Positions 2,729 through 61,311 of a stretch of DNA of 64,000 nt are shown here, in pieces. The notes under the pieces were generated by a model. It saw only the letters and a program-made list of their open reading frames with translations, did not search any database and had not been told where the DNA came from. Numbering within the stretch: position 1 is the stretch's first letter; each line of letters opens with the position of its first letter. Position numbers and translations under genes: made by a program. The stretch comes from Nitrospirota bacterium (GTDB lineage: Bacteria > Nitrospirota > Nitrospiria > JACQBW01): NCBI GenBank assembly GCA_016178585.1, contig JACOTA010000013.1, positions 3,183-67,182 on the forward strand, read 5' to 3'.

Positions 2729-3334
2729 CTATTTTGATTGAGAGGTCATTTGTTTTTCAGTCCCTGCCAACAGTCTTTTGATATTTTCGACGTGTTTCAG
2801 GTAGATGATTAAAACGACCAGGACCGCAAAGAAAAGATAATCTTTTTCCCCCAAAACCAGGAAGGTCAAGGGAAGGAGCCCAAATGAAACAAGCCCCCCG
2901 AGTGAGGAATACTTCCAGGTAAAATAGACCCCGTTCCAAATGATGAAGGTAATAATGGCTACCGCGGGGGAAATTCCTAAAAGAACACCGAAGCTGGTGG
3001 CAACCCCTTTTCCCCCTTTAAACCTCAGATAAATTGAAAAAATATGTCCCAGGATAGCAGCAAGGGCTACCGTCGAAATCCAGAAAACGGTGGGCGTCAT
3101 CTGCTTTGCGATTAGGACAGGAAGTGTTCCCTTCAGTGTGTCAAGGGTCAGGGTCATAAACGCTGTTTTTTTATTGGTGGTGCGCATGACGTTGGTGAAG
3201 CCAATTCCACCGCTTCCTCCTTTCCGGGGATCCATCCCGGCAAATATTTTCGATAAGATCAGGCCAAATGGAATACCGCCTAAAAGGCAGGAGATTGTCA
3301 CGATCATTATTCCGGATACAATTGAAGAATCCAA
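2729..3334 (-). CDS. plsY: Glycerol-3-phosphate acyltransferase PlsY
   Basis: 201 aa polytopic membrane protein with the PlsY signature FKGGKGVAT. TTG start (RC of caa at 3332-3334). Confidence 0.85.
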   Translation of the reverse strand: MDSSIVSGIMIVTISCLLGGIPFGLILSKIFAGMDPRKGGSGGIGFTNVMRTTNKKTAFMTLTLDTLKGTLPVLIAKQMTPTVFWISTVALAAILGHIFSIYLRFKGGKGVATSFGVLLGISPAVAIITFIIWNGVYFTWKYSSLGGLVSFGLLPLTFLVLGEKDYLFFAVLVVLIIYLKHVENIKRLLAGTEKQMTSQSK

Positions 3335-3350
3335 ATTTCTAATCCTTATT

Positions 3351-3439
3351 TATATTCAGGGGCCGGTGCGCCCCGCCTTCGGCGGATGCTCCGATGCCCC
3401 CCGAACCCCGCGTTCCGCACCGGCTTAGCCGGTTGCTTC
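3351..3439 (-). repeat. F1 structured intercistronic element, copy 1 (pgsA|plsY)
   Basis: Conserved ends TATTCAGGGGCC ... CCCCGAACCCCGCGTTCCGCACCGGCTTAGCCGGTTGCTTC. Confidence 0.8.
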
Positions 3440-3445
3440 CCTTAC

Positions 3446-3979
3446 CTATTTATAGGCCTGTCTGGCGTAATTGACAAAATACTGAATGCCGGAAATGACT
3501 GCAAGGAAAAGCGAGACCCACATAAAAAAAGTCCCCAGGAGTTGAAAATTTAAAGGGAAAGTTAAATTCCAGAGGAGGAGCGAAATCGCGGTAATTTGAG
3601 CCCCCATTTTATACTTTCCGAGAACATCAGCGGGAATGATAATATCTTCCATCGCGGCAAGGGCTCTAAGCCCGGTCACCGCCATTTCCCTGCCGATTAA
3701 GATGACCACAATCCACGCTTCAACGCGATGAAAATTGACCAGCAGGATTAACGCGGAAATGACCAGAAGTTTGTCTGCGATCGGGTCCATGAGTTTTCCC
3801 CATTTGGTCACTTCTCCTCTTTTCCTGGCAAGATATCCGTCAAGAAAATCTGTCAGGGATGCCAGCAAAAACGTTACGGTTGCAAAAAAAGACCGGATGG
3901 GAGTCGGGTCCAAATAAATAAATATAAAAACGGGAATCATGGCTATTCGGAGAAGCGTCAGAAAATTAGGAAGATTCAT
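3446..3979 (-). CDS. pgsA: CDP-diacylglycerol--glycerol-3-phosphate 3-phosphatidyltransferase
   Basis: CDP-alcohol phosphatidyltransferase motif DFLDGYLAR...GKLMDPIADKLL. The ORF track extends to 4090, but the typical start is MNLPNFLTLLRIA at 3979, which overlaps the upstream gene's stop by 14 nt. Confidence 0.85.
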   Translation of the reverse strand: MNLPNFLTLLRIAMIPVFIFIYLDPTPIRSFFATVTFLLASLTDFLDGYLARKRGEVTKWGKLMDPIADKLLVISALILLVNFHRVEAWIVVILIGREMAVTGLRALAAMEDIIIPADVLGKYKMGAQITAISLLLWNLTFPLNFQLLGTFFMWVSLFLAVISGIQYFVNYARQAYK

Positions 3980-4883: not shown

Positions 4884-4903
4884 ATATCAATCAGTCTACA
4901 ACA

Positions 4904-5029
4904 GTCCTGACGTTGAGAAGTGGTCAGTTGCCAGGCCGCAGAATCGAGGCAACGCAGGCGTACGTTAAATGTACGTTGAGGAAGCCGAGATTCGAGAACG
5001 CAGCAAATGGCCACTTATCGACGATCAGG
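4904..5029 (+). ncRNA. F3 structured element, copy a (candidate small RNA; overlaps the kdsC stop)
   Basis: About 125 nt imperfect palindrome. Closing stem CCUGACG...CGAUCAGG and internal hairpin CGUAC-7nt-GUACG. Shares about 75% identity with 32759-32886. Confidence 0.45.
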
Positions 5030-9771: not shown

Positions 9772-10778
9772 AAAGAATGGTTAAGATCATCCAATAAGGT
9801 TTGCTGAGTCACAGTTGCCGTTCCGACAATCCCGACGACAATTCCGGCGGCATGATTTGCCAAAACCGCGGAATCTTTTAAATTGGCTCCCGCCGAAAGA
9901 GCCAGGGATAATACGCTTACAACCGTATCCCCGGCGCCTGTAACATCGAAAACTTTCTTGGCGACAGTCGGAATATGCGTGACCTCCCCGGAGTTTTCAA
10001 AGAGGCTCATCCCATGTTCTCCCCGCGTAATGAGTACCGACTCGCAATCGAGCTTCTTTAAAATGGTCTGACCGGCTTTCATTAACGACGCTTCATCCTC
10101 TATTTCAATCCCGGAACCCAGGGAAGCTTCGAGATGGTTGGGGGTGAGGAGCGTGACACCCCTATAGATTGAAAAATGACTGATTTTCGGGTCGACAATA
10201 ATTTTGATTTTAAGTTCTTTTGAAAAATTAATTGCCCCCCTGATTAAACTTTCAGTGACAACCCCTTTTTCGTAATCGGAGATGACAATCGACTGATATT
10301 GATCAAGATTTTTTTCCAGCCAGGAGAGGAGTTTTTTCTGGCTTTCGGCGGAAATATCTCCCCGTTTTTCGTGATCAAATCTAACCACCTGCTGACTATG
10401 GGCGATGACCCTCGTTTTCCGGGTCGTTGGGCGTCCGGGTTCCTGAATAATGCCCTGTCCGCTGACCTTCATCTCCCTTAAACGGCGGGTAATCCATTCG
10501 CCGGAAGCGTCCTGTCCAATAACCCCTCCGAGATCCGTTTTACCGCCAAGAGAAAAAATATTATGGCAAACGTTGGCCGCCCCGCCCAATAACATGGTTT
10601 CAGAGGTTACATTCACCACGGGAACGGGCGCTTCTGGCGAGATCCGTTTCACGGTTCCCCAGATATAATGGTCCAGCATTAAATCGCCAATCACAAGAAT
10701 CCGCGACTCTGAAAATTTTTTAACGTAAGACCTTAACGGATGTTCAGCGCGTTTTCTTTGTTCATTCCCAGGTTTCAT
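9768..10778 (-). CDS. hldE: D-glycero-beta-D-manno-heptose-7-phosphate kinase (RfaE domain I only, PfkB family)
   Basis: 336 aa. Motif ILVIGDLMLDHYIWG plus the PfkB motif DVTGAGDT. No adenylyltransferase domain is fused. Confidence 0.75.
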
Positions 10779-11408: not shown

Positions 11409-11429
11409 TTCATTCCTTAAGCCTTATTT

Positions 11430-11516
11430 TATTCAGGGGCCCGTGCGGTTTCACTCCGTGAAATCCTCCGATGCCCCCGAACCCCGCGTTCCGCACCGAC
11501 TAAGCCGGTTGCTTCA
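11430..11516 (-). repeat. F1 element, copy 2 (lepA|lepB)
   Basis: Same conserved ends. Confidence 0.8.
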
Positions 11517-20527: not shown

Positions 20528-20534
20528 TCTATTT

Positions 20535-20642
20535 TATTCAGGGGCCTGTGCCACAAAGCTTGCTCGCGAGCGTTCCCGCAGCGAAGCTATGTTTTCATGC
20601 CCCCGAACCCCGCGTTCCGCAACGGCAAAGCCGGTTGCTTCA
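20535..20642 (-). repeat. F1 element, copy 3 (HDAC-like|VOC)
   Basis: Same conserved ends with a longer variable hairpin. Confidence 0.8.
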
Positions 20643-31167: not shown

Positions 31168-31286
31168 TTTTTTATTGAGGTGAGCGATACATCCACAAAC
31201 GGTTAAATATAAGGTAATTCATGGGTAGAGTAAAGAAAATTGTGGAAACACCTTGATCTGATTTTGCGCCTGCCTTATGATGTAAG

Positions 31287-31396
31287 TGAAGCATCTGGCT
31301 CTGCCAGTGACGGACTTGGGAATGGTCGTAGTGAGACCGAGCGTAACGCGGGGTTCGGGGGCATTGAGAGTGAAGTGCTCGAAGGCCTCCTGAATA
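31287..31396 (+). repeat. F1 element, copy 4 (inverted on the chromosome; precedes the + strand radical SAM gene)
   Basis: Reverse complement of the consensus. Contains one 32-bp CGGTCT..GTC sub-module. Confidence 0.8.
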
Positions 31397-31402
31397 TAAT
31401 AA

Positions 31403-32275
31403 GTGAAGCAAAATCCTAACCTTTCTAAAGCCTTTTCCGACCATCGTCGCAGTTACGATCGTAACCGGCATGTTTATCCGGTTATTTCAAGGCGGTCAAA
31501 AGGGCTGTCGATAGGGATTAATCTTAACCCCGACAAGGTCTGTAACTTCGATTGTGTTTACTGCCAGGTTGACCGACGGGCTCCAGGTCATCCACCCCTG
31601 GTCGAAATTCCTCTCATCCTCCATGAGCTTAAGGAAATCCTTGAATCGGTCATGTCGGGTCAATTTTACCTGGACCCCCGGTTTAAGGATATTCCGCGTG
31701 ATCAGCTTATTTTAAGGGATATTGCTTTTTCCGGAGACGGAGAACCTTCCACCTTTCCGCTATTTTTAGAGTTAACCCAGGGAGTGATTTCGCTGAAAAA
31801 TGAATTAGGTCTTTTCGAACTCAAGGTCGTCGTGATTACCAATGCTTCAGGTCTGGGCCGTCTGGAGGTTCAAAAAGCCCTTGACTTATTGGATAATCAT
31901 CACGGGGAAATTTGGGCCAAACTTGACGCAGGGACGGAGGCTTACTTTCATAAAATTTGCCGGACACCGTTAGGTTTTCAAAAAATCTTGAATAATATTC
32001 AGTTTGCCGCCCAAAAAAGACCTATTGTGATTCAATCCTGTTTTATGAAAATCGATGGGAAAGGACCATCAGAAGATGAATTAGAGGCTTACGCAGAACA
32101 ATTCCGGCGAATTTTGGAGAACCATGGCAAGTTAAAGCTGATCCAGATCTACACCGTTGCGCGAGTTCCTGCCGAACCCTATGTCACCCCCCTGGAGGAC
32201 CATGAGCTTGATGAAATTGTCGAACGAATAAGATTAAAAATAAATGTGCCGTTGGAAGCTTTTTACCACGCTTAA
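31403..32275 (+). CDS. Radical SAM protein
   Basis: CNFDCVYC (CxxxCxxC) near the N-terminus. GTG start immediately after a repeat element; the exact start is uncertain. Confidence 0.6.
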   Translation: MKQNPNLSKAFSDHRRSYDRNRHVYPVISRRSKGLSIGINLNPDKVCNFDCVYCQVDRRAPGHPPLVEIPLILHELKEILESVMSGQFYLDPRFKDIPRDQLILRDIAFSGDGEPSTFPLFLELTQGVISLKNELGLFELKVVVITNASGLGRLEVQKALDLLDNHHGEIWAKLDAGTEAYFHKICRTPLGFQKILNNIQFAAQKRPIVIQSCFMKIDGKGPSEDELEAYAEQFRRILENHGKLKLIQIYTVARVPAEPYVTPLEDHELDEIVERIRLKINVPLEAFYHA

Positions 32276-41868: not shown

Positions 41869-41883
41869 TAAATCCTCCTATTT

Positions 41884-41962
41884 TATATTCAGGGGTCTTC
41901 GAGAAAAACACTCTCAATGCCCCCGAACCCCGCGTTACGCACTGGCAAAGCCAGTTGCTTCA
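41884..41962 (-). repeat. F1 element, copy 5 (FAD-oxidoreductase|gcvH)
   Basis: Same conserved ends. Confidence 0.8.
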
Positions 41963-45915: not shown

Positions 45916-46695
45916 ATGACCAGGAATGTCAGATTAACGATTTCCTATAATGGGACCCCTTTTCATGGGTGGCAGGTACAGCCTGATGTAAACACTATTC
46001 AAGGGACTTTAATTAAAGTTATTGAAAAAATTACGTCGGGGAAAAATGTCAATTTAATCGGCGCCGGGCGGACAGATGCCGGAGTCCATGCTTTAGGACA
46101 GGTGGCTAATTTTAAGACCGAAAAAACTTTGACGGAAAAAAAGTGGAAGGCCGCGCTAAATGGTCTGCTTCCGCCTGAAATTGTCGTATGGAAAGTCGAA
46201 TTTGTGCCGGACGGTTTCCATTCCCGCTACACGGCCATTGATAAAACCTACGCCTATCATATCGGTTTTCAAAAATCACCGTTTTTATTCGATAGAGAAT
46301 GGACTTTTAGCCGTCCACTTAAACTTCCGGCCATGAAAAAAGCGCTCTCTTTTTTAGCCGGAAAACATGATTTTACCTCTTTTGCTTCTTCATTATCGGA
46401 ATCGGAGACCAAAATCTGCCATTTAAAAAAATACGAGATTGTTCAAAACCGTCATTCGCTGATCTTCAGGTTGACCGCGAACCGTTTTTTAACGCATATG
46501 GTACGAAATATCGTCGGAACGCTCGTGGAGGTTGGTTTAGGTAAAATAAAACCCGCTGAAATTAAACAAATTCTAGAACTGAAAGACCGGAAAAAAGCGG
46601 GACCGACAGCGCCCCCTCATGGGCTTTATCTGGTCGAAGTCAAGTACCGGAAAAGGCTATCAGAGGGGCTCGCGTCGCCCCCTCCACTGGCATAG
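45916..46695 (+). CDS. truA: tRNA pseudouridine(38-40) synthase
   Basis: Motif GAGRTDAGVHALGQV. Confidence 0.9.
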   Translation: MTRNVRLTISYNGTPFHGWQVQPDVNTIQGTLIKVIEKITSGKNVNLIGAGRTDAGVHALGQVANFKTEKTLTEKKWKAALNGLLPPEIVVWKVEFVPDGFHSRYTAIDKTYAYHIGFQKSPFLFDREWTFSRPLKLPAMKKALSFLAGKHDFTSFASSLSESETKICHLKKYEIVQNRHSLIFRLTANRFLTHMVRNIVGTLVEVGLGKIKPAEIKQILELKDRKKAGPTAPPHGLYLVEVKYRKRLSEGLASPPPLA

Positions 46696-46755
46696 CCAGC
46701 TGGAGCCTCCCCGTCTCGCTCGCTTCCGCTCGCTAGGTTAAGCCTCTGAGTGGAT

Positions 46756-53535: not shown

Positions 53536-53541
53536 CCATTC

Positions 53542-53616
53542 TATTCAGGGGCCTTCGCAAACGACGCTCAATGCCCCCGAACCCCGCGTTCCGCACTGGC
53601 AAAGCCAGTTGCTTCA
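53542..53616 (-). repeat. F1 element, copy 6a
   Basis: First unit of a tandem pair. Confidence 0.8.
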
Positions 53617-53623
53617 TCCATTC

Positions 53624-53794
53624 TATTCAGGGGCCTTCGCAAACGACACTCAATGCCCCCGAACCCCGCGTTCCACTCGGTCTAACTACGACCATTCCAA
53701 AGTCCGTCTCGGTCTAACTACGACCATTCCAAAGTCCGTCTCGGTCTAACGACGACCATTCCAAAGTCCGTCACTGGCAAAGCCAGTTGCTTCA
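53624..53794 (-). repeat. F1 element, copy 6b with three tandem 32-bp sub-modules (53678-53773)
   Basis: Second tandem unit. CGGTCTAACTACGACCATTCCAAAGTCCGTCT repeated three times. Confidence 0.8.
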
Positions 53795-60209: not shown

Positions 60210-60231
60210 TCCTAAAATTCCTTTTCGATTA

Positions 60232-60359
60232 TATTCAGGGGCCCGTGCGGAGAAATGATTAAAACCATATGTCCGCTACGGGATCGCTCCCAAAGCAGGC
60301 TCGGAGGCTCCAAATGCCCCCGAACCCCGCGTTACGGACTGGCAAAGCCAAGTGCTTCA
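60232..60359 (-). repeat. F1 element, copy 7 (upstream of the 94-aa gene)
   Basis: Same conserved ends. TATAAT lies 3 nt upstream in transcript sense. Confidence 0.8.
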
Positions 60360-60624: not shown

Positions 60625-60760
60625 AAGAACAGAGTTAGAAAGCTGTCATTGCGAACAAAGTGAAGCAATCTCAAGACTTTACGATAAGATTGCCACGCAC
60701 CCTTCGGTGCTCGCAATGACATGATTAATAAGTGGGTGCGAAGTCTATCGCTGGTCTAGG
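60625..60760 (+). repeat. 137-bp element, copy C
   Basis: One mismatch to copy B. Confidence 0.9.
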
Positions 60761-61129: not shown

Positions 61130-61167
61130 TCGATCCGAATTAATCCTGACGGTCTCGTAAAAAGTCT

Positions 61168-61200
61168 GAGACGGATTGTGGAATGGTCGTAGTTAGACCG
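61168..61200 (-). repeat. Solo 32-bp sub-module (CGGTCTAACTACGACCATTCCACAATCCGTCT)
   Basis: Occurs outside any F1 element, downstream of pgpA. Confidence 0.6.
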
Positions 61201-61311
61201 AAAAAGTGGTTTTTTTGTCATTCCCGTGCAAACGGGAATCCAGTTTTTTCAAGTCGTTATGTTCTCCCTAGATTCCCGCTTTCGCGGGAATGACGAATTT
61301 TTACAAGACCA

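Follow-up and report, generated by a model that had tools for sequence, protein, structure and literature searches.

A previously undescribed, structured mobile repeat in the gene-start spacers of uncultured Nitrospirota

The window, by which we mean the whole 64,000-nucleotide stretch of Nitrospirota DNA analysed here, contains a gene for a CDP-alcohol phosphatidyltransferase (pgsA-like) whose stop codon lies at position 3446, followed on the minus strand by plsY, which starts at 3334. The spacer between them is filled by an element at 3350..3439 (-) that matches our covariance model with 62.4 bits (E=1e-12). The 89 bases flagged here in a preliminary description are one copy, copy 1 (wA), of a previously undescribed small mobile repeat, restricted to its lineage, of an uncultured Nitrospirota bacterium related to Ca. 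Manganitrophaceae. Read in the sense of plsY, with every feature on the minus strand, copy 1 opens with a hairpin, P1 (3417..3436), of the form GCA-A-CCGGC / UAA / GCCGG-UGC, 8 bp with one bulged A, seen in MFE folds, in the RNAalifold consensus and in pair counts. A linker, GGAACGCGGG (3407..3416), comes next; it is unpaired in the consensus fold and contains the first of two G-runs, and its AACGC and GGGG are invariant or nearly so in alignments A1 and A2. The second G-run forms the 5' strand of a further helix, P2, as (G)UUCGGGGGGC (3396..3406; MFE folds, RNAalifold). P2 encloses a variable hairpin, P3 (3364..3395), which in copy 1 is of the long type AUCGGAG...CGCACCG (MFE folds, alignment), and closes with its 3' strand GCCCCUGAAU (3354..3363), which contains a consensus G·U pair (MFE folds, pair counts, RNAalifold). 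The A-rich tail ATAAATAAGGATTAGAAAT (3335..3353), placed by empty-site and flank comparison, carries the plsY ribosome-binding site. Within this tail TATAAATAAGG repeats the TATAAATAGG found directly 5' of the element, and the empty site at the pgsA-plsY position in the relative L129 reads CCTATAAATAGGAAATG.

The gene-sense order of the family is GAAGCA, P1, an optional module of 32 nt in one to three copies, the single-stranded linker, P2 enclosing the variable stem P3, and the A-rich tail. P1 takes the form GCA-bulge-CYGGC / GCCRG-UGC and P2 the form UUCGGGGGC / GCCCCUGAA. Copies are non-coding and multicopy and measure 77-173 nt, with a core of about 77 nt that grows to 110-170 nt through bigger P3 domains or nested modules. 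A 20-nt block, AACGCGGGGTTCGGGGGCAT, is invariant among the window copies, save for one extra G in copy 1, which might point to a genuine function through binding of a specific protein.

In all, the window holds eight full copies and one compact derivative, and about 15 further copies lie in related contigs. Chance would give 0.75 occurrences of the string GGGGTTCGGGGG in the window; there are eight, a count reached in none of 100 shuffles. Covariance-model scores at the eight window sites run from 57 to 104 bits, with matches also in L071, L125-L129, L135 and L142. One genome carries 9-10 copies in about 72 kb, including a new copy within the 8 kb added to the window. Copy 2 (wB; 11427..11515, minus strand, 71 bits) sits in the lepA-lepB spacer, and copy 3 (wC; 20532..20641, minus strand), identified by covariance model and gene annotation, in the spacer between a deacetylase and a glyoxalase gene. 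Copy 4 (wD; 31288..31399), placed by covariance model and sequence, is the only one on the plus strand and has a 32-nt module nested in it; its start lies 7 nt past the -10 box of TTGATC-N17-TATGAT and its end 3 nt ahead of the GTG start of a radical-SAM gene. Copy 5 (wE; 41883..41961, minus strand, 94.3 bits), of the short type, lies upstream of gcvH. Copy 6 (wF; 53539..53615, minus strand, 102.3 bits), also short, ends 3 nt ahead of the ATG of a gene for a DnaJ-HTH protein and stands in tandem with copy 7 (wG; 53621..53793, minus strand; covariance model, sequence), in which the nested 32-nt module is repeated three times in tandem. Upstream of copy 7 is a ParA-like gene whose TGA stop falls within the element's AGTGAAGCA; an upstream stop codon inside the element occurs in two copies, wG and wI. 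Copy 8 (wH; 60229..60358, minus strand; covariance model, sequence) has a long P3, TATAAT-N5 before it and a 94-aa ORF after it. The compact derivative (46660..46706, minus strand; 18.1 bits, E=0.034) consists of P1 and a mini P2 without the linker and is located where two convergent genes meet. Tandem arrays, at 53539-53793 and also in L071 and L127, are all head-to-tail.

The preliminary description listed a series of P1 hairpin variants, and every one is there in the window copies: ACCGGC-TAA-GCCGGT in the copy at 3439, ACCGGC-TTA-GTCGGT with its G·U pair at 11515, ACCGGC-TTT-GCCGTT with a C·U mismatch at 20641, ACTGGC-TTT-GCCAGT at 41961, 53615 and 53793, and ACTTGGC...GCCAGT with a 1-nt bulge at 60358. 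The MFE folds of 18 copies agree on P1, P2 and P3, and RNAalifold recovers these helices independently. The proposal that a G-tract can pair with the distal GGCCCC was borne out, in that the second G-run plus UUC pairs with GCCCCUGAA in every MFE fold. When all copies are aligned by MAFFT or by covariance model (A1, A3), P1 is misplaced where nested modules occur, and our pair counts rest instead on alignment A4, which is hand-made, restricted to helices and stripped of bulges, and so leans toward structure. In A4, 93.2% of helix cells are paired on the sense strand over 21 copies, and pairing falls to 22-43% in partner-slide controls. Both-side changes occur at seven pairs against 2.3±1.2 in shuffles, and the covariation score is 0.153 against 0.090; neither value was reached in 500 shuffles. 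One P1 pair, e, is U-A in 15 copies, C-G in three and A-U in two, and is never mismatched.

These numbers support hairpins that are kept by base-pair-preserving changes, as had been claimed for P1. Copies 1-3 share their P1 and a long P3 type and form one subfamily, so their U-A to C-G change is one evolutionary event and not three, and to that extent the earlier claim has to be cut back. Independent compensatory events are few, roughly five in P1 and P2 together and several more in P3. RNAalifold on the natural sequences supports covariation at 3 of 19 pairs, fewer than A4 does; individual copies have modest z-scores, between -1.9 and -3.8, and folding is seen on the antisense strand as well. 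The covariation mostly separates subfamilies of a mobile element.

Which strand folds? It had been argued that the G·U pair in P1 shows that only the gene-sense strand does. That argument fails on P1 itself, where five G·U cells stand against five A·C cells in the 21 copies. The asymmetry comes from P2 and P3, with 63 G·U against 4 A·C, giving 68 against 9 over all helices, and paired cells amount to 93.2% in sense against 79.4% in antisense. The sense MFE is more stable than the antisense MFE in 18 of 18 copies, and the element is oriented in sense to the adjacent gene at all of some 19 loci, the plus-strand copy preceding a plus-strand gene. P2/P3 G·U pairs, sense MFE and sense orientation together support the gene-sense strand as the one that folds. 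DNA-parameter folds give the same helices and the same sense-strand advantage, and the data fit sense-strand RNA and sense-strand single-stranded DNA alike. The claim that only gene-sense RNA would fit stands for the strand, through P2 and P3, but not for P1.

The preliminary description also placed function at the level of RNA rather than of a DNA-binding site. A symmetric double-stranded operator is indeed unlikely, since folding and orientation favour the gene-sense strand; as to the RNA half of the claim, the same evidence fits RNA and single-stranded sense DNA alike. As a double-stranded signal the element would be a portable promoter or operator cassette, a protein-binding palindrome with a TATAAT-like tail serving the downstream gene. 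In its favour, P1 forms a perfect palindrome of 6 bp around a 3-bp spacer, the core block does not vary, and TATAAT-like hexamers occur 4-6 nt ahead of GAAGCA and again in the 3' tail (TGAATATAAT). We nevertheless regard this as extremely unlikely. Symmetric pairing-preserving changes (U-A, C-G, A-U) are not expected of a protein half-site, and the excess of G·U over A·C in P2/P3 is a single-strand signature. The tail as a promoter was rejected: no -35 box lies at workable spacing before its hexamer, the TG stands 2 nt away from it instead of 1 nt, and in L071 the hexamer directly adjoins mature tRNA-Trp at its 5' end and cannot be the promoter of that tRNA. Upstream of copy 1, TATAAATAG is native coding sequence, present too at the empty site in L129.

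The genes downstream have little in common. They are functionally unrelated, comprising plsY, lepB, and genes for a glyoxalase, a radical-SAM enzyme, GcvH and the DnaJ-HTH protein, together with rpmG, secE, nusG, tRNA-Trp and tRNA-Tyr. This bears on the idea of a dedicated cis-regulatory RNA leader, in which two G-runs would contend for one C-run beside the ribosome-binding site and thereby regulate the gene that follows, at the level of translation or transcription. The leader idea has in its favour a sense-strand structure with covariation, an invariant G-rich block, a location directly upstream of ribosome-binding sites and two CGGGG motifs that could both, in principle, pair with CCCCUG. 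The switch itself was rejected on energetics, the competing G-run pairing being less stable by 9.4-15.4 kcal/mol. Nor is the suggested action on the adjacent ribosome-binding site supported: the region downstream of P2 is mostly unpaired (probability 0.5-0.8), and the site is open in the MFE ensemble. Unrelated downstream genes and tRNAs, orthologous spacers of close relatives without the element, orthologous copies that have lost G-runs or their whole 3' half, and tolerance of nested modules and tandem copies all count against a dedicated leader or riboswitch, which was rejected on the genes, the empty spacers and the degenerating copies; we hold it to be quite improbable.

The element moves. 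Empty and filled sites could be paired at five loci. The lepA-lepB spacer measures 121 nt in the window's genome against 52 nt in a relative at 96% LepA identity and 30 nt at 85-87%; in L130 it is 9 nt long, in Manganitrophus 2 nt. Relatives as near as the one at 96% thus have the orthologous site empty. Comparison of this site with L132, L133, L134 and L129 shows copy 2 flanked by direct repeats of 16-17 nt, TAAAATAAAAGATTAAG and TAAAATAAGGCTTAAG. The pgsA-plsY gap in relatives is 3-12 nt. In L138 the gcvH and radical-SAM sites are both empty, the former being a 23-nt gap and the latter reading TATCAT-N6-GTG, so that the counterpart of the copy-4 promoter abuts the GTG start codon. Between tRNA-Thr and tRNA-Tyr the spacer is filled in L126, with TTGGA..GGGGAGA duplicated, and empty in L127. 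A covariance-model search of the 20-kb syntenic stretches found no copy in L130, L131 or L138 and one divergent copy in L129. Copies that stay in place decay: in the secE-nusG spacer L071 has a full copy, the window's genome a degenerate one (24.8 bits) and L142 no more than P1, and orthologous copies lose G-runs or their entire 3' half.

The targets are short spacers directly before genes and tRNAs, always entered in sense. Flanking direct repeats run from 10-11 nt at plsY and 13-14 nt at tRNA-Tyr to 16-17 nt at lepB and 16-18 nt at the radical-SAM gene, and these repeats (~10-18 nt) restore what lies downstream, be it a ribosome-binding site, a start codon or the 5' end of a tRNA. Their length varies, and many copies share only the motif TATAAnAAGT in their flanks; flanks of the same locus are nonetheless more alike than flanks of different loci (permutation p=0.007). 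(A/T)AAGT usually stands directly before GAAGCA, and the empty sites share no fixed tetranucleotide. There are no terminal inverted repeats, the 5' end GAAGCAAC and the 3' end CCCCTGAA not being complementary; an inverted-repeat scan found only a 7-nt match in one copy's flank and none in another. Such variable direct repeats fit no standard transposase.

Could the hairpins serve mobility as single-stranded DNA? A strand-specific enzyme, IS200/IS605- or RAYT-transposase-like or acting as in integron attC recombination, would read the folded sense DNA on the lagging-strand template, and folding of the RNA would be incidental. Several observations sit well with this. Covariation mostly between subfamilies is what one expects if only master copies are selected, and orthologous copies decay. 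DNA-parameter folds return the same helices with the sense-strand advantage, and G·T is the best-tolerated DNA mismatch. Negative GC skew suggests that 8 of 9 copies of the window's genome lie on the lagging-strand template, and head-to-tail arrays exist. Yet the copy at 31288, on the plus strand, takes its orientation from its gene rather than from the replication strand, and antisense copies at plus-strand genes are absent, although such genes make up about 30% of those here. Flanking direct repeats of 10-18 nt misfit IS200/IS605, which makes no target duplication, and we see neither a GTAG/CGTC tag nor inverted REP doublets, nor a transposase among the annotated genes flanking copies. We consider this explanation unlikely, less so than the leader or the operator.

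Searches for a known identity returned little. Among the curated Rfam 15 models only a tRNA reaches its gathering score in the searched DNA, and in permissive mode (E up to 10) no family falls on the copies except a chance 2dG-I match in copy 8 (E=9). By eye we rejected signatures of hammerhead, twister, HDV-like, tRNA-like, T-arm, kink-turn, sigma-54 promoter and integron attC. We found no account of the element in the literature, whether searched by topic or by sequence string. A scan of a genome collection with the 16-mer ACGCGGGGTTCGGGGG gave nearly all chance matches in high-GC genomes, L071 alone being relevant; a metagenome scan with a 20-mer found five loci only, and a viral-contig scan none.

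Among known repeats, the element shares with MITEs its small size, lack of coding capacity, multiple copies and insertion polymorphism, and lacks their terminal inverted repeats. BOX elements of Streptococcus pneumoniae (boxA-boxB(n)-boxC) are short non-coding intergenic repeats near genes, modular with variable internal copies and predicted to form stable structures in their transcripts. Our element is likewise short, dispersed, intergenic and modular with an internal module in variable number; it has no evident sequence similarity to BOX and differs in being strictly sense, in abutting gene starts and tRNA 5' ends, in its P1-linker-P2/P3 plan and in its variable direct repeats. MIRUs are direct repeats, sometimes tandem, that occupy operon spacers in one orientation, overlap the flanking stop and start codons and carry short through-reading ORFs for translational coupling. 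The sense orientation in operon spacers, the tandem arrays and the upstream stop inside two copies recall them. The Nitrospirota element is, however, defined by its hairpins, and TAA, TGA and CAT-TGA stops in all three frames within its first 50 nt leave no through-reading ORF. REPs are 20-40 nt long, carry a GTAG or CGTC tag, form inverted doublets and usually lie 3' of genes in an orientation that is not strictly sense. REP/REPIN elements are described as high-copy extragenic palindromes with hairpins kept by compensatory change and with one-strand action (PMC3337134, PMC3733652). In contrast, the present element is at least 77 nt long, has no GTAG/CGTC tag, and forms head-to-tail arrays without inverted doublets. 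It has hairpins like an IS200/IS605-derived palindrome element and differs from one in its flanking duplications and lack of a fixed target tetranucleotide.

ERIC/IRU and Correia/NEMIS repeats are co-transcribed with flanking genes, and their RNA stem-loops affect mRNA fate, via RNase E for ERIC in Yersinia, where the effect depends on orientation, and via RNase III for Correia (PMC2229807). Both have terminal inverted repeats and TA target duplications (PMC2229807, Table 1), whereas consistent terminal inverted repeats are missing from our element, whose direct repeats are long and of variable length. The CIR repeats of Caulobacter and Brucella are intergenic, are listed without terminal inverted repeats and have an RNA model of two long arms joined by a motif-bearing linker (PMC2229807). 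The conserved motif is GANTC in a loop in CIR and AACGCGGGGUUCGGGGGCAU in our element, the host phylum differs, and gene-start association is not described for CIR.

We think it probable that these copies form a new family of intergenic repeats, MITE/BOX-like, structured and co-transcribed, either selfish or serving as a generic structured spacer, and not an RNA switch specific to a gene or a ligand. The element would be co-transcribed because it lies within operons or starts at a predicted transcription start. On its sense strand two stable arms are predicted to form, with the ribosome-binding site left accessible. Selection may keep the hairpins of propagating copies foldable on that strand, compensatory changes being mostly differences between subfamilies. 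The most likely role in RNA would be generic, as a tolerated or mildly useful structured spacer; candidates are a 5'-terminal protective stem-loop, a site of transcript punctuation or processing, and an insulator.

A bolder proposal is a mobile 'gene-start cassette' that would insert exactly at transcription and translation start regions, the start signal being rebuilt by long variable target duplications, with SINE-like copying perhaps behind it. Insertion would fall between a -10 box and a leaderless start codon, between a ribosome-binding site and a start codon, or in the first 7 nt of a tRNA. An RNA or circular intermediate would make this a bacterial SINE-like element or one of site-directed retro-/recombination, and a 5' end at the predicted transcription start, an A-rich 3' tail, variable direct repeats and truncated derivatives would fit such copying. 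Co-option as a genome-wide module for RNA punctuation or stabilization would be possible. We give the cassette proposal very little weight.

The element matters first for annotation: it fills many operon spacers in a poorly studied uncultured lineage near the manganese-oxidising Manganitrophaceae, breaks metagenome assemblies and could pass for a riboswitch-like leader. It is also a clean case of a structured, strictly sense intergenic repeat with sharp empty/filled pairs, among them a leaderless gene start and a tRNA 5' end, and could be used to study tolerance inside essential operons and spread without terminal inverted repeats. Should the G-rich single-stranded block bind a host factor or direct RNA processing, the family would amount to a genome-wide layer of post-transcriptional control.

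The element is a modular, mobile, sense-oriented repeat whose hairpins keep their ability to fold on the sense strand; it inserts beside gene and tRNA starts, duplicating the start region, and decays over time. Copy 1 (3350-3439, minus strand) occupies the spacer between the CDP-alcohol phosphatidyltransferase gene (stop 3446) and plsY (start 3334), its gene-sense sequence running GAAGCAACCGGCTAAGCCGGTGCGGAACGCGGGGTTCGGGGGGCATCGG...CACCGGCCCCTGAATATAA. The window has eight occurrences of the 12-mer GGGGTTCGGGGG where chance predicts 0.75, and none of 100 shuffles reaches that count. All eight window copies share one layout: (T)AAGT-GAAGCA, a first hairpin (P1) and GYGNRAACGC, followed by GGGGTTCGGGGGCAT, a variable hairpin and GGCCCCTGAATAWAA, then the ribosome-binding site and start codon. 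Seven are on the minus strand, each before minus-strand genes, and one (31288-31399) is on the plus strand before a plus-strand gene. Their 3' neighbors are plsY, lepB, glyoxalase, a radical-SAM enzyme, gcvH, a DnaJ-HTH protein and a 94-aa ORF. At 46660-46706 there is a compact derivative.

The same architecture appeared in MFE folds of 18 copies. P1 is GCA-bulge-CYGGC/loop/GCCRG-UGC, of 8 bp; a conserved, single-stranded linker of 10 nt, GGAACGCGGG, follows, and then P2, in which (G)UUCGGGGGC pairs with GCCCCUGAA(U). P2 encloses the variable stem, P3, which is of either a short or a long type. The short one combines U·G, U-A, tandem G·A and A·G with a 3-bp apical stem and a loop that varies; copies 1-3, copy 8 (60229-60358) and the copies of the related contigs L128 and L142 have the long one. 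Given natural short-type sequences, RNAalifold independently predicted P1, P2 and the apical part of P3. The G-rich block, invariant and single-stranded, is our best lead as a candidate contact for a specific partner.

The preliminary description had read the P1 variants as base-pair-preserving changes, and every one was there exactly as described: CCGGC/GCCGG in copies 1-3 and CUGGC/GCCAG in the remaining copies; copy 2 has a G·U, copy 3 a C·U, and in the copy at 60358 a U is bulged. We compared 21 copies in a hand-made, helix-only alignment, with bulges and loops removed, nested modules excised and absent segments set to N; in this alignment, which leans towards structure, 93.2% of cells are paired (89.1 ± 0.6% shuffled), seven pairs are altered on both sides (2.3 ± 1.2 shuffled) and the covariation score is 0.153 (0.090 shuffled), none of 500 shuffles reaching any of these values. 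With partners slid by 1-3 columns, only 22-43% of cells paired. P1 pair e is U-A in 15 copies, C-G in three and A-U in two, with no mismatches; pair c is A-U in 16 and G-C in one, and pair b C-G in 15 and G-C in one. In P2, pair l is C-G in 17 and U-A in one (a second U-A, in L142, is outside the alignment), and pair m is G·U in 16 and G-C in four. Pair v of P3 is C-G in six, U·G in four, A-U in three and U-A in one. The pairing and covariation statistics point to hairpins kept by selection. The copies fall into subfamilies, however: copies 1-3; copy 4 (31288-31399) with L125 and the genome's ninth copy; and copy 8 with L128. Most of the covariation therefore goes back to a small number of events in master copies, and the U-A to C-G change shared by copies 1-3, a single subfamily, counts as one event.

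Which strand folds had been argued from the G·U of copy 2, said to fit the gene-sense RNA only. P1 does not bear this out, having five G·U and five A·C cells. P2 (39 against 3) and P3 (24 against 1) do show a strand asymmetry, with G·U at four consensus pairs; the share of paired cells is 93.2% for the sense strand and 79.4% for the antisense, and the MFE is lower for the sense strand in 18 of 18 copies. Folds with DNA parameters give the same asymmetry, so thermodynamics fits sense RNA and sense single-stranded DNA alike. Every locus, the plus-strand copy included, is sense to its adjoining gene, and no copy in the window is antisense to a plus-strand gene. These orientations modestly favor a link with transcription over one with replication.

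In relatives the orthologous spacers lack the element, which has thus been inserted recently and is no conserved leader. The lepA-lepB spacer is 121 nt in the window, 52 nt in L132 and L133 (LepA 96% identical), 30 nt in L129 and L134 (85-87%) and shorter still in L130 (9 nt) and Manganitrophus (2 nt). At 2643-2694 of L132 and L133, where the window has the element, this spacer holds a 20-nt hairpin, CAGGCTTTTTGAACAGCCTG, then AAATAAATA; the hairpin, which has the direct repeats of the window's lepB copy on both sides, is the product of an internal deletion or, alternatively, a minimal relative of the element. The pgsA-plsY gap is 3-12 nt in relatives, and the spacer upstream of gcvH is 23 nt in L138. 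There the radical-SAM gene (9960-10003) reads TTGATC-N17-TATCAT-N6-GTG without the element and is apparently leaderless; the window locus (31253-31405) has the same promoter, there TTGATC-N17-TATGAT, with 7 nt to the element's first G and 3 nt from the element's end to GTG. From a leaderless-looking arrangement, the element would give this gene a leader of ~115 nt. The native start, GTGAAGCAA, is similar to the element's own 5' end, GTGAAGCAAC. tRNA-Thr and tRNA-Tyr lie 5 nt apart in L127 and 158 nt apart in L126, where the duplication TTGGA..GGGGAGA takes in the tRNA's first 7 nt.

Direct repeats surround the lepB (16-17 nt), plsY (10-11 nt) and radical-SAM copies. A TATAAnAAGT-like motif is common to all flanks, own-locus flanks are more similar than between-locus flanks (p=0.007), and terminal inverted repeats are not consistently present. 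The element is absent from 20-kb syntenic stretches of L130, L131 and L138, and L129 has one divergent copy, in the kdsC/lipid A acyltransferase spacer. At that site the window (4884-5014) has 131 nt of unrelated sequence, whose GTTGCC...GGCAAC segments are complementary. Elsewhere, the TGA stops of the upstream ParA-like gene (53792-53794) and of rbfA (L135 4199-4201) fall inside the element's 5' motif AAGTGAAG, so that insertion has reshaped the 3' ends of both genes.

Collection scans and a covariance model (R1) located further copies. The window's genome has its ninth just past the window, in the rbfA/DHH-family gene spacer (L135 4203-4313). L071, a Nitrospiria MAG, has six, before rpmG, tRNA-Trp (two), secE (two) and nusG; L127 has two in tandem, L125, L126 (tRNA-Thr/tRNA-Tyr spacer) and L128 have one each, and L142 has one full copy. 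Several metagenome contigs begin within the element, as expected where assemblies break at a repeat. LepA, GcvH and other proteins of the Nitrospirota MAG GCA_016195515.1 are identical to those of the window, and LepA is 74-75% identical to that of Ca. Manganitrophus.

Copies at orthologous sites decay. Between secE and nusG, L071 has a full copy; its counterpart in the window's genome (L140, L141) is degenerate, scoring 24.8 bits and lacking the first G-run, and in L142 just the P1 module is left. The L071 copies before rpmG and secE have no counterpart in L142, and both L132 and L142 have mini-hairpin derivatives in which a P2-like stem and the tail are all that is kept. Such decay speaks against strong purifying selection acting on individual copies.

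Other repeats are nested in the element or lie near it. A separate 32-nt module, ACGGACTT(T/G)GGAATGGTCGTAGTTAGACCGAG, is nested after GCCAGTG in four copies, one to three times each (window 31311-31342 and, as three tandem copies, 53683-53778; L135 4226-4257; L125), and is solitary on the plus strand at ~61164-61200 (near 61180); it represents an optional domain or else a second small mobile unit. The window's gene-poor 60.4-61.3 kb stretch has other families (~61216-61293, ~60644-60722): one of ATTCCC-N8-GGGAAT palindromes (GTCATTCCCGCGAAAGCGGGAATC), similar to Neisseria dRS3, and one of GTCATTGCGAG...GCAATGAC, found too in L142 (1830-1910). L071 copies c0 and c4 (~205-270, ~875-940) carry, between the P2 5' strand and P3, the same ~65-nt insert with inverted repeats GAATGTTTCC and GGAACATT at its ends, which looks like a classical MITE nested in the element. 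A segment AGCTTCGCTGCGG...GC(T/A)CGC recurs in P3 of copy 3 (20560-20600), 5' of the L126 copy (~690-740) and in L142 (~1880-1900), which suggests yet another small shared module.

What might the element do? The proposal that two G-runs compete for one C-run as a switch fails on energy: with the second run blocked and the first forced onto the C-run, the alternative is 9.4-15.4 kcal/mol worse. The stretch 3' of P2, with the ribosome-binding site, has a mean unpaired probability of 0.5-0.8, and the folds give no sign of sequestration of that site. The element would be co-transcribed with its neighbor gene, and in promoter-proximal copies P1 would stand 3 nt from the RNA 5' end. A stem so placed is a geometry that protects mRNAs from 5'-end-dependent decay. 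Within operons, the P2 and P3 helix could serve as a processing site or an insulator, as ERIC and Correia elements are reported to do (PMC2229807). The sense-only orientation may reflect which insertions are tolerated; it places stop codons at the 5' end, leaves the A-rich 3' tail and its ribosome-binding site open, and brings in no terminator-like U-tract.

The element works like the structured intergenic repeats of the BOX, ERIC, Correia, CIR, MIRU and bcr1 types but is a member of none, set apart by having no terminal inverted repeats, REP tag, through-reading ORF or Rfam match. Comparison with Rfam gave no matching family at gathering scores or at E≤10, apart from a chance 2dG-I match to copy 8 at E=9, and literature searches found no description of it. 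It is a new family among structured intergenic repeats, and what makes it interesting is mainly that it keeps so strictly to gene starts and that its direct repeats are long and variable.
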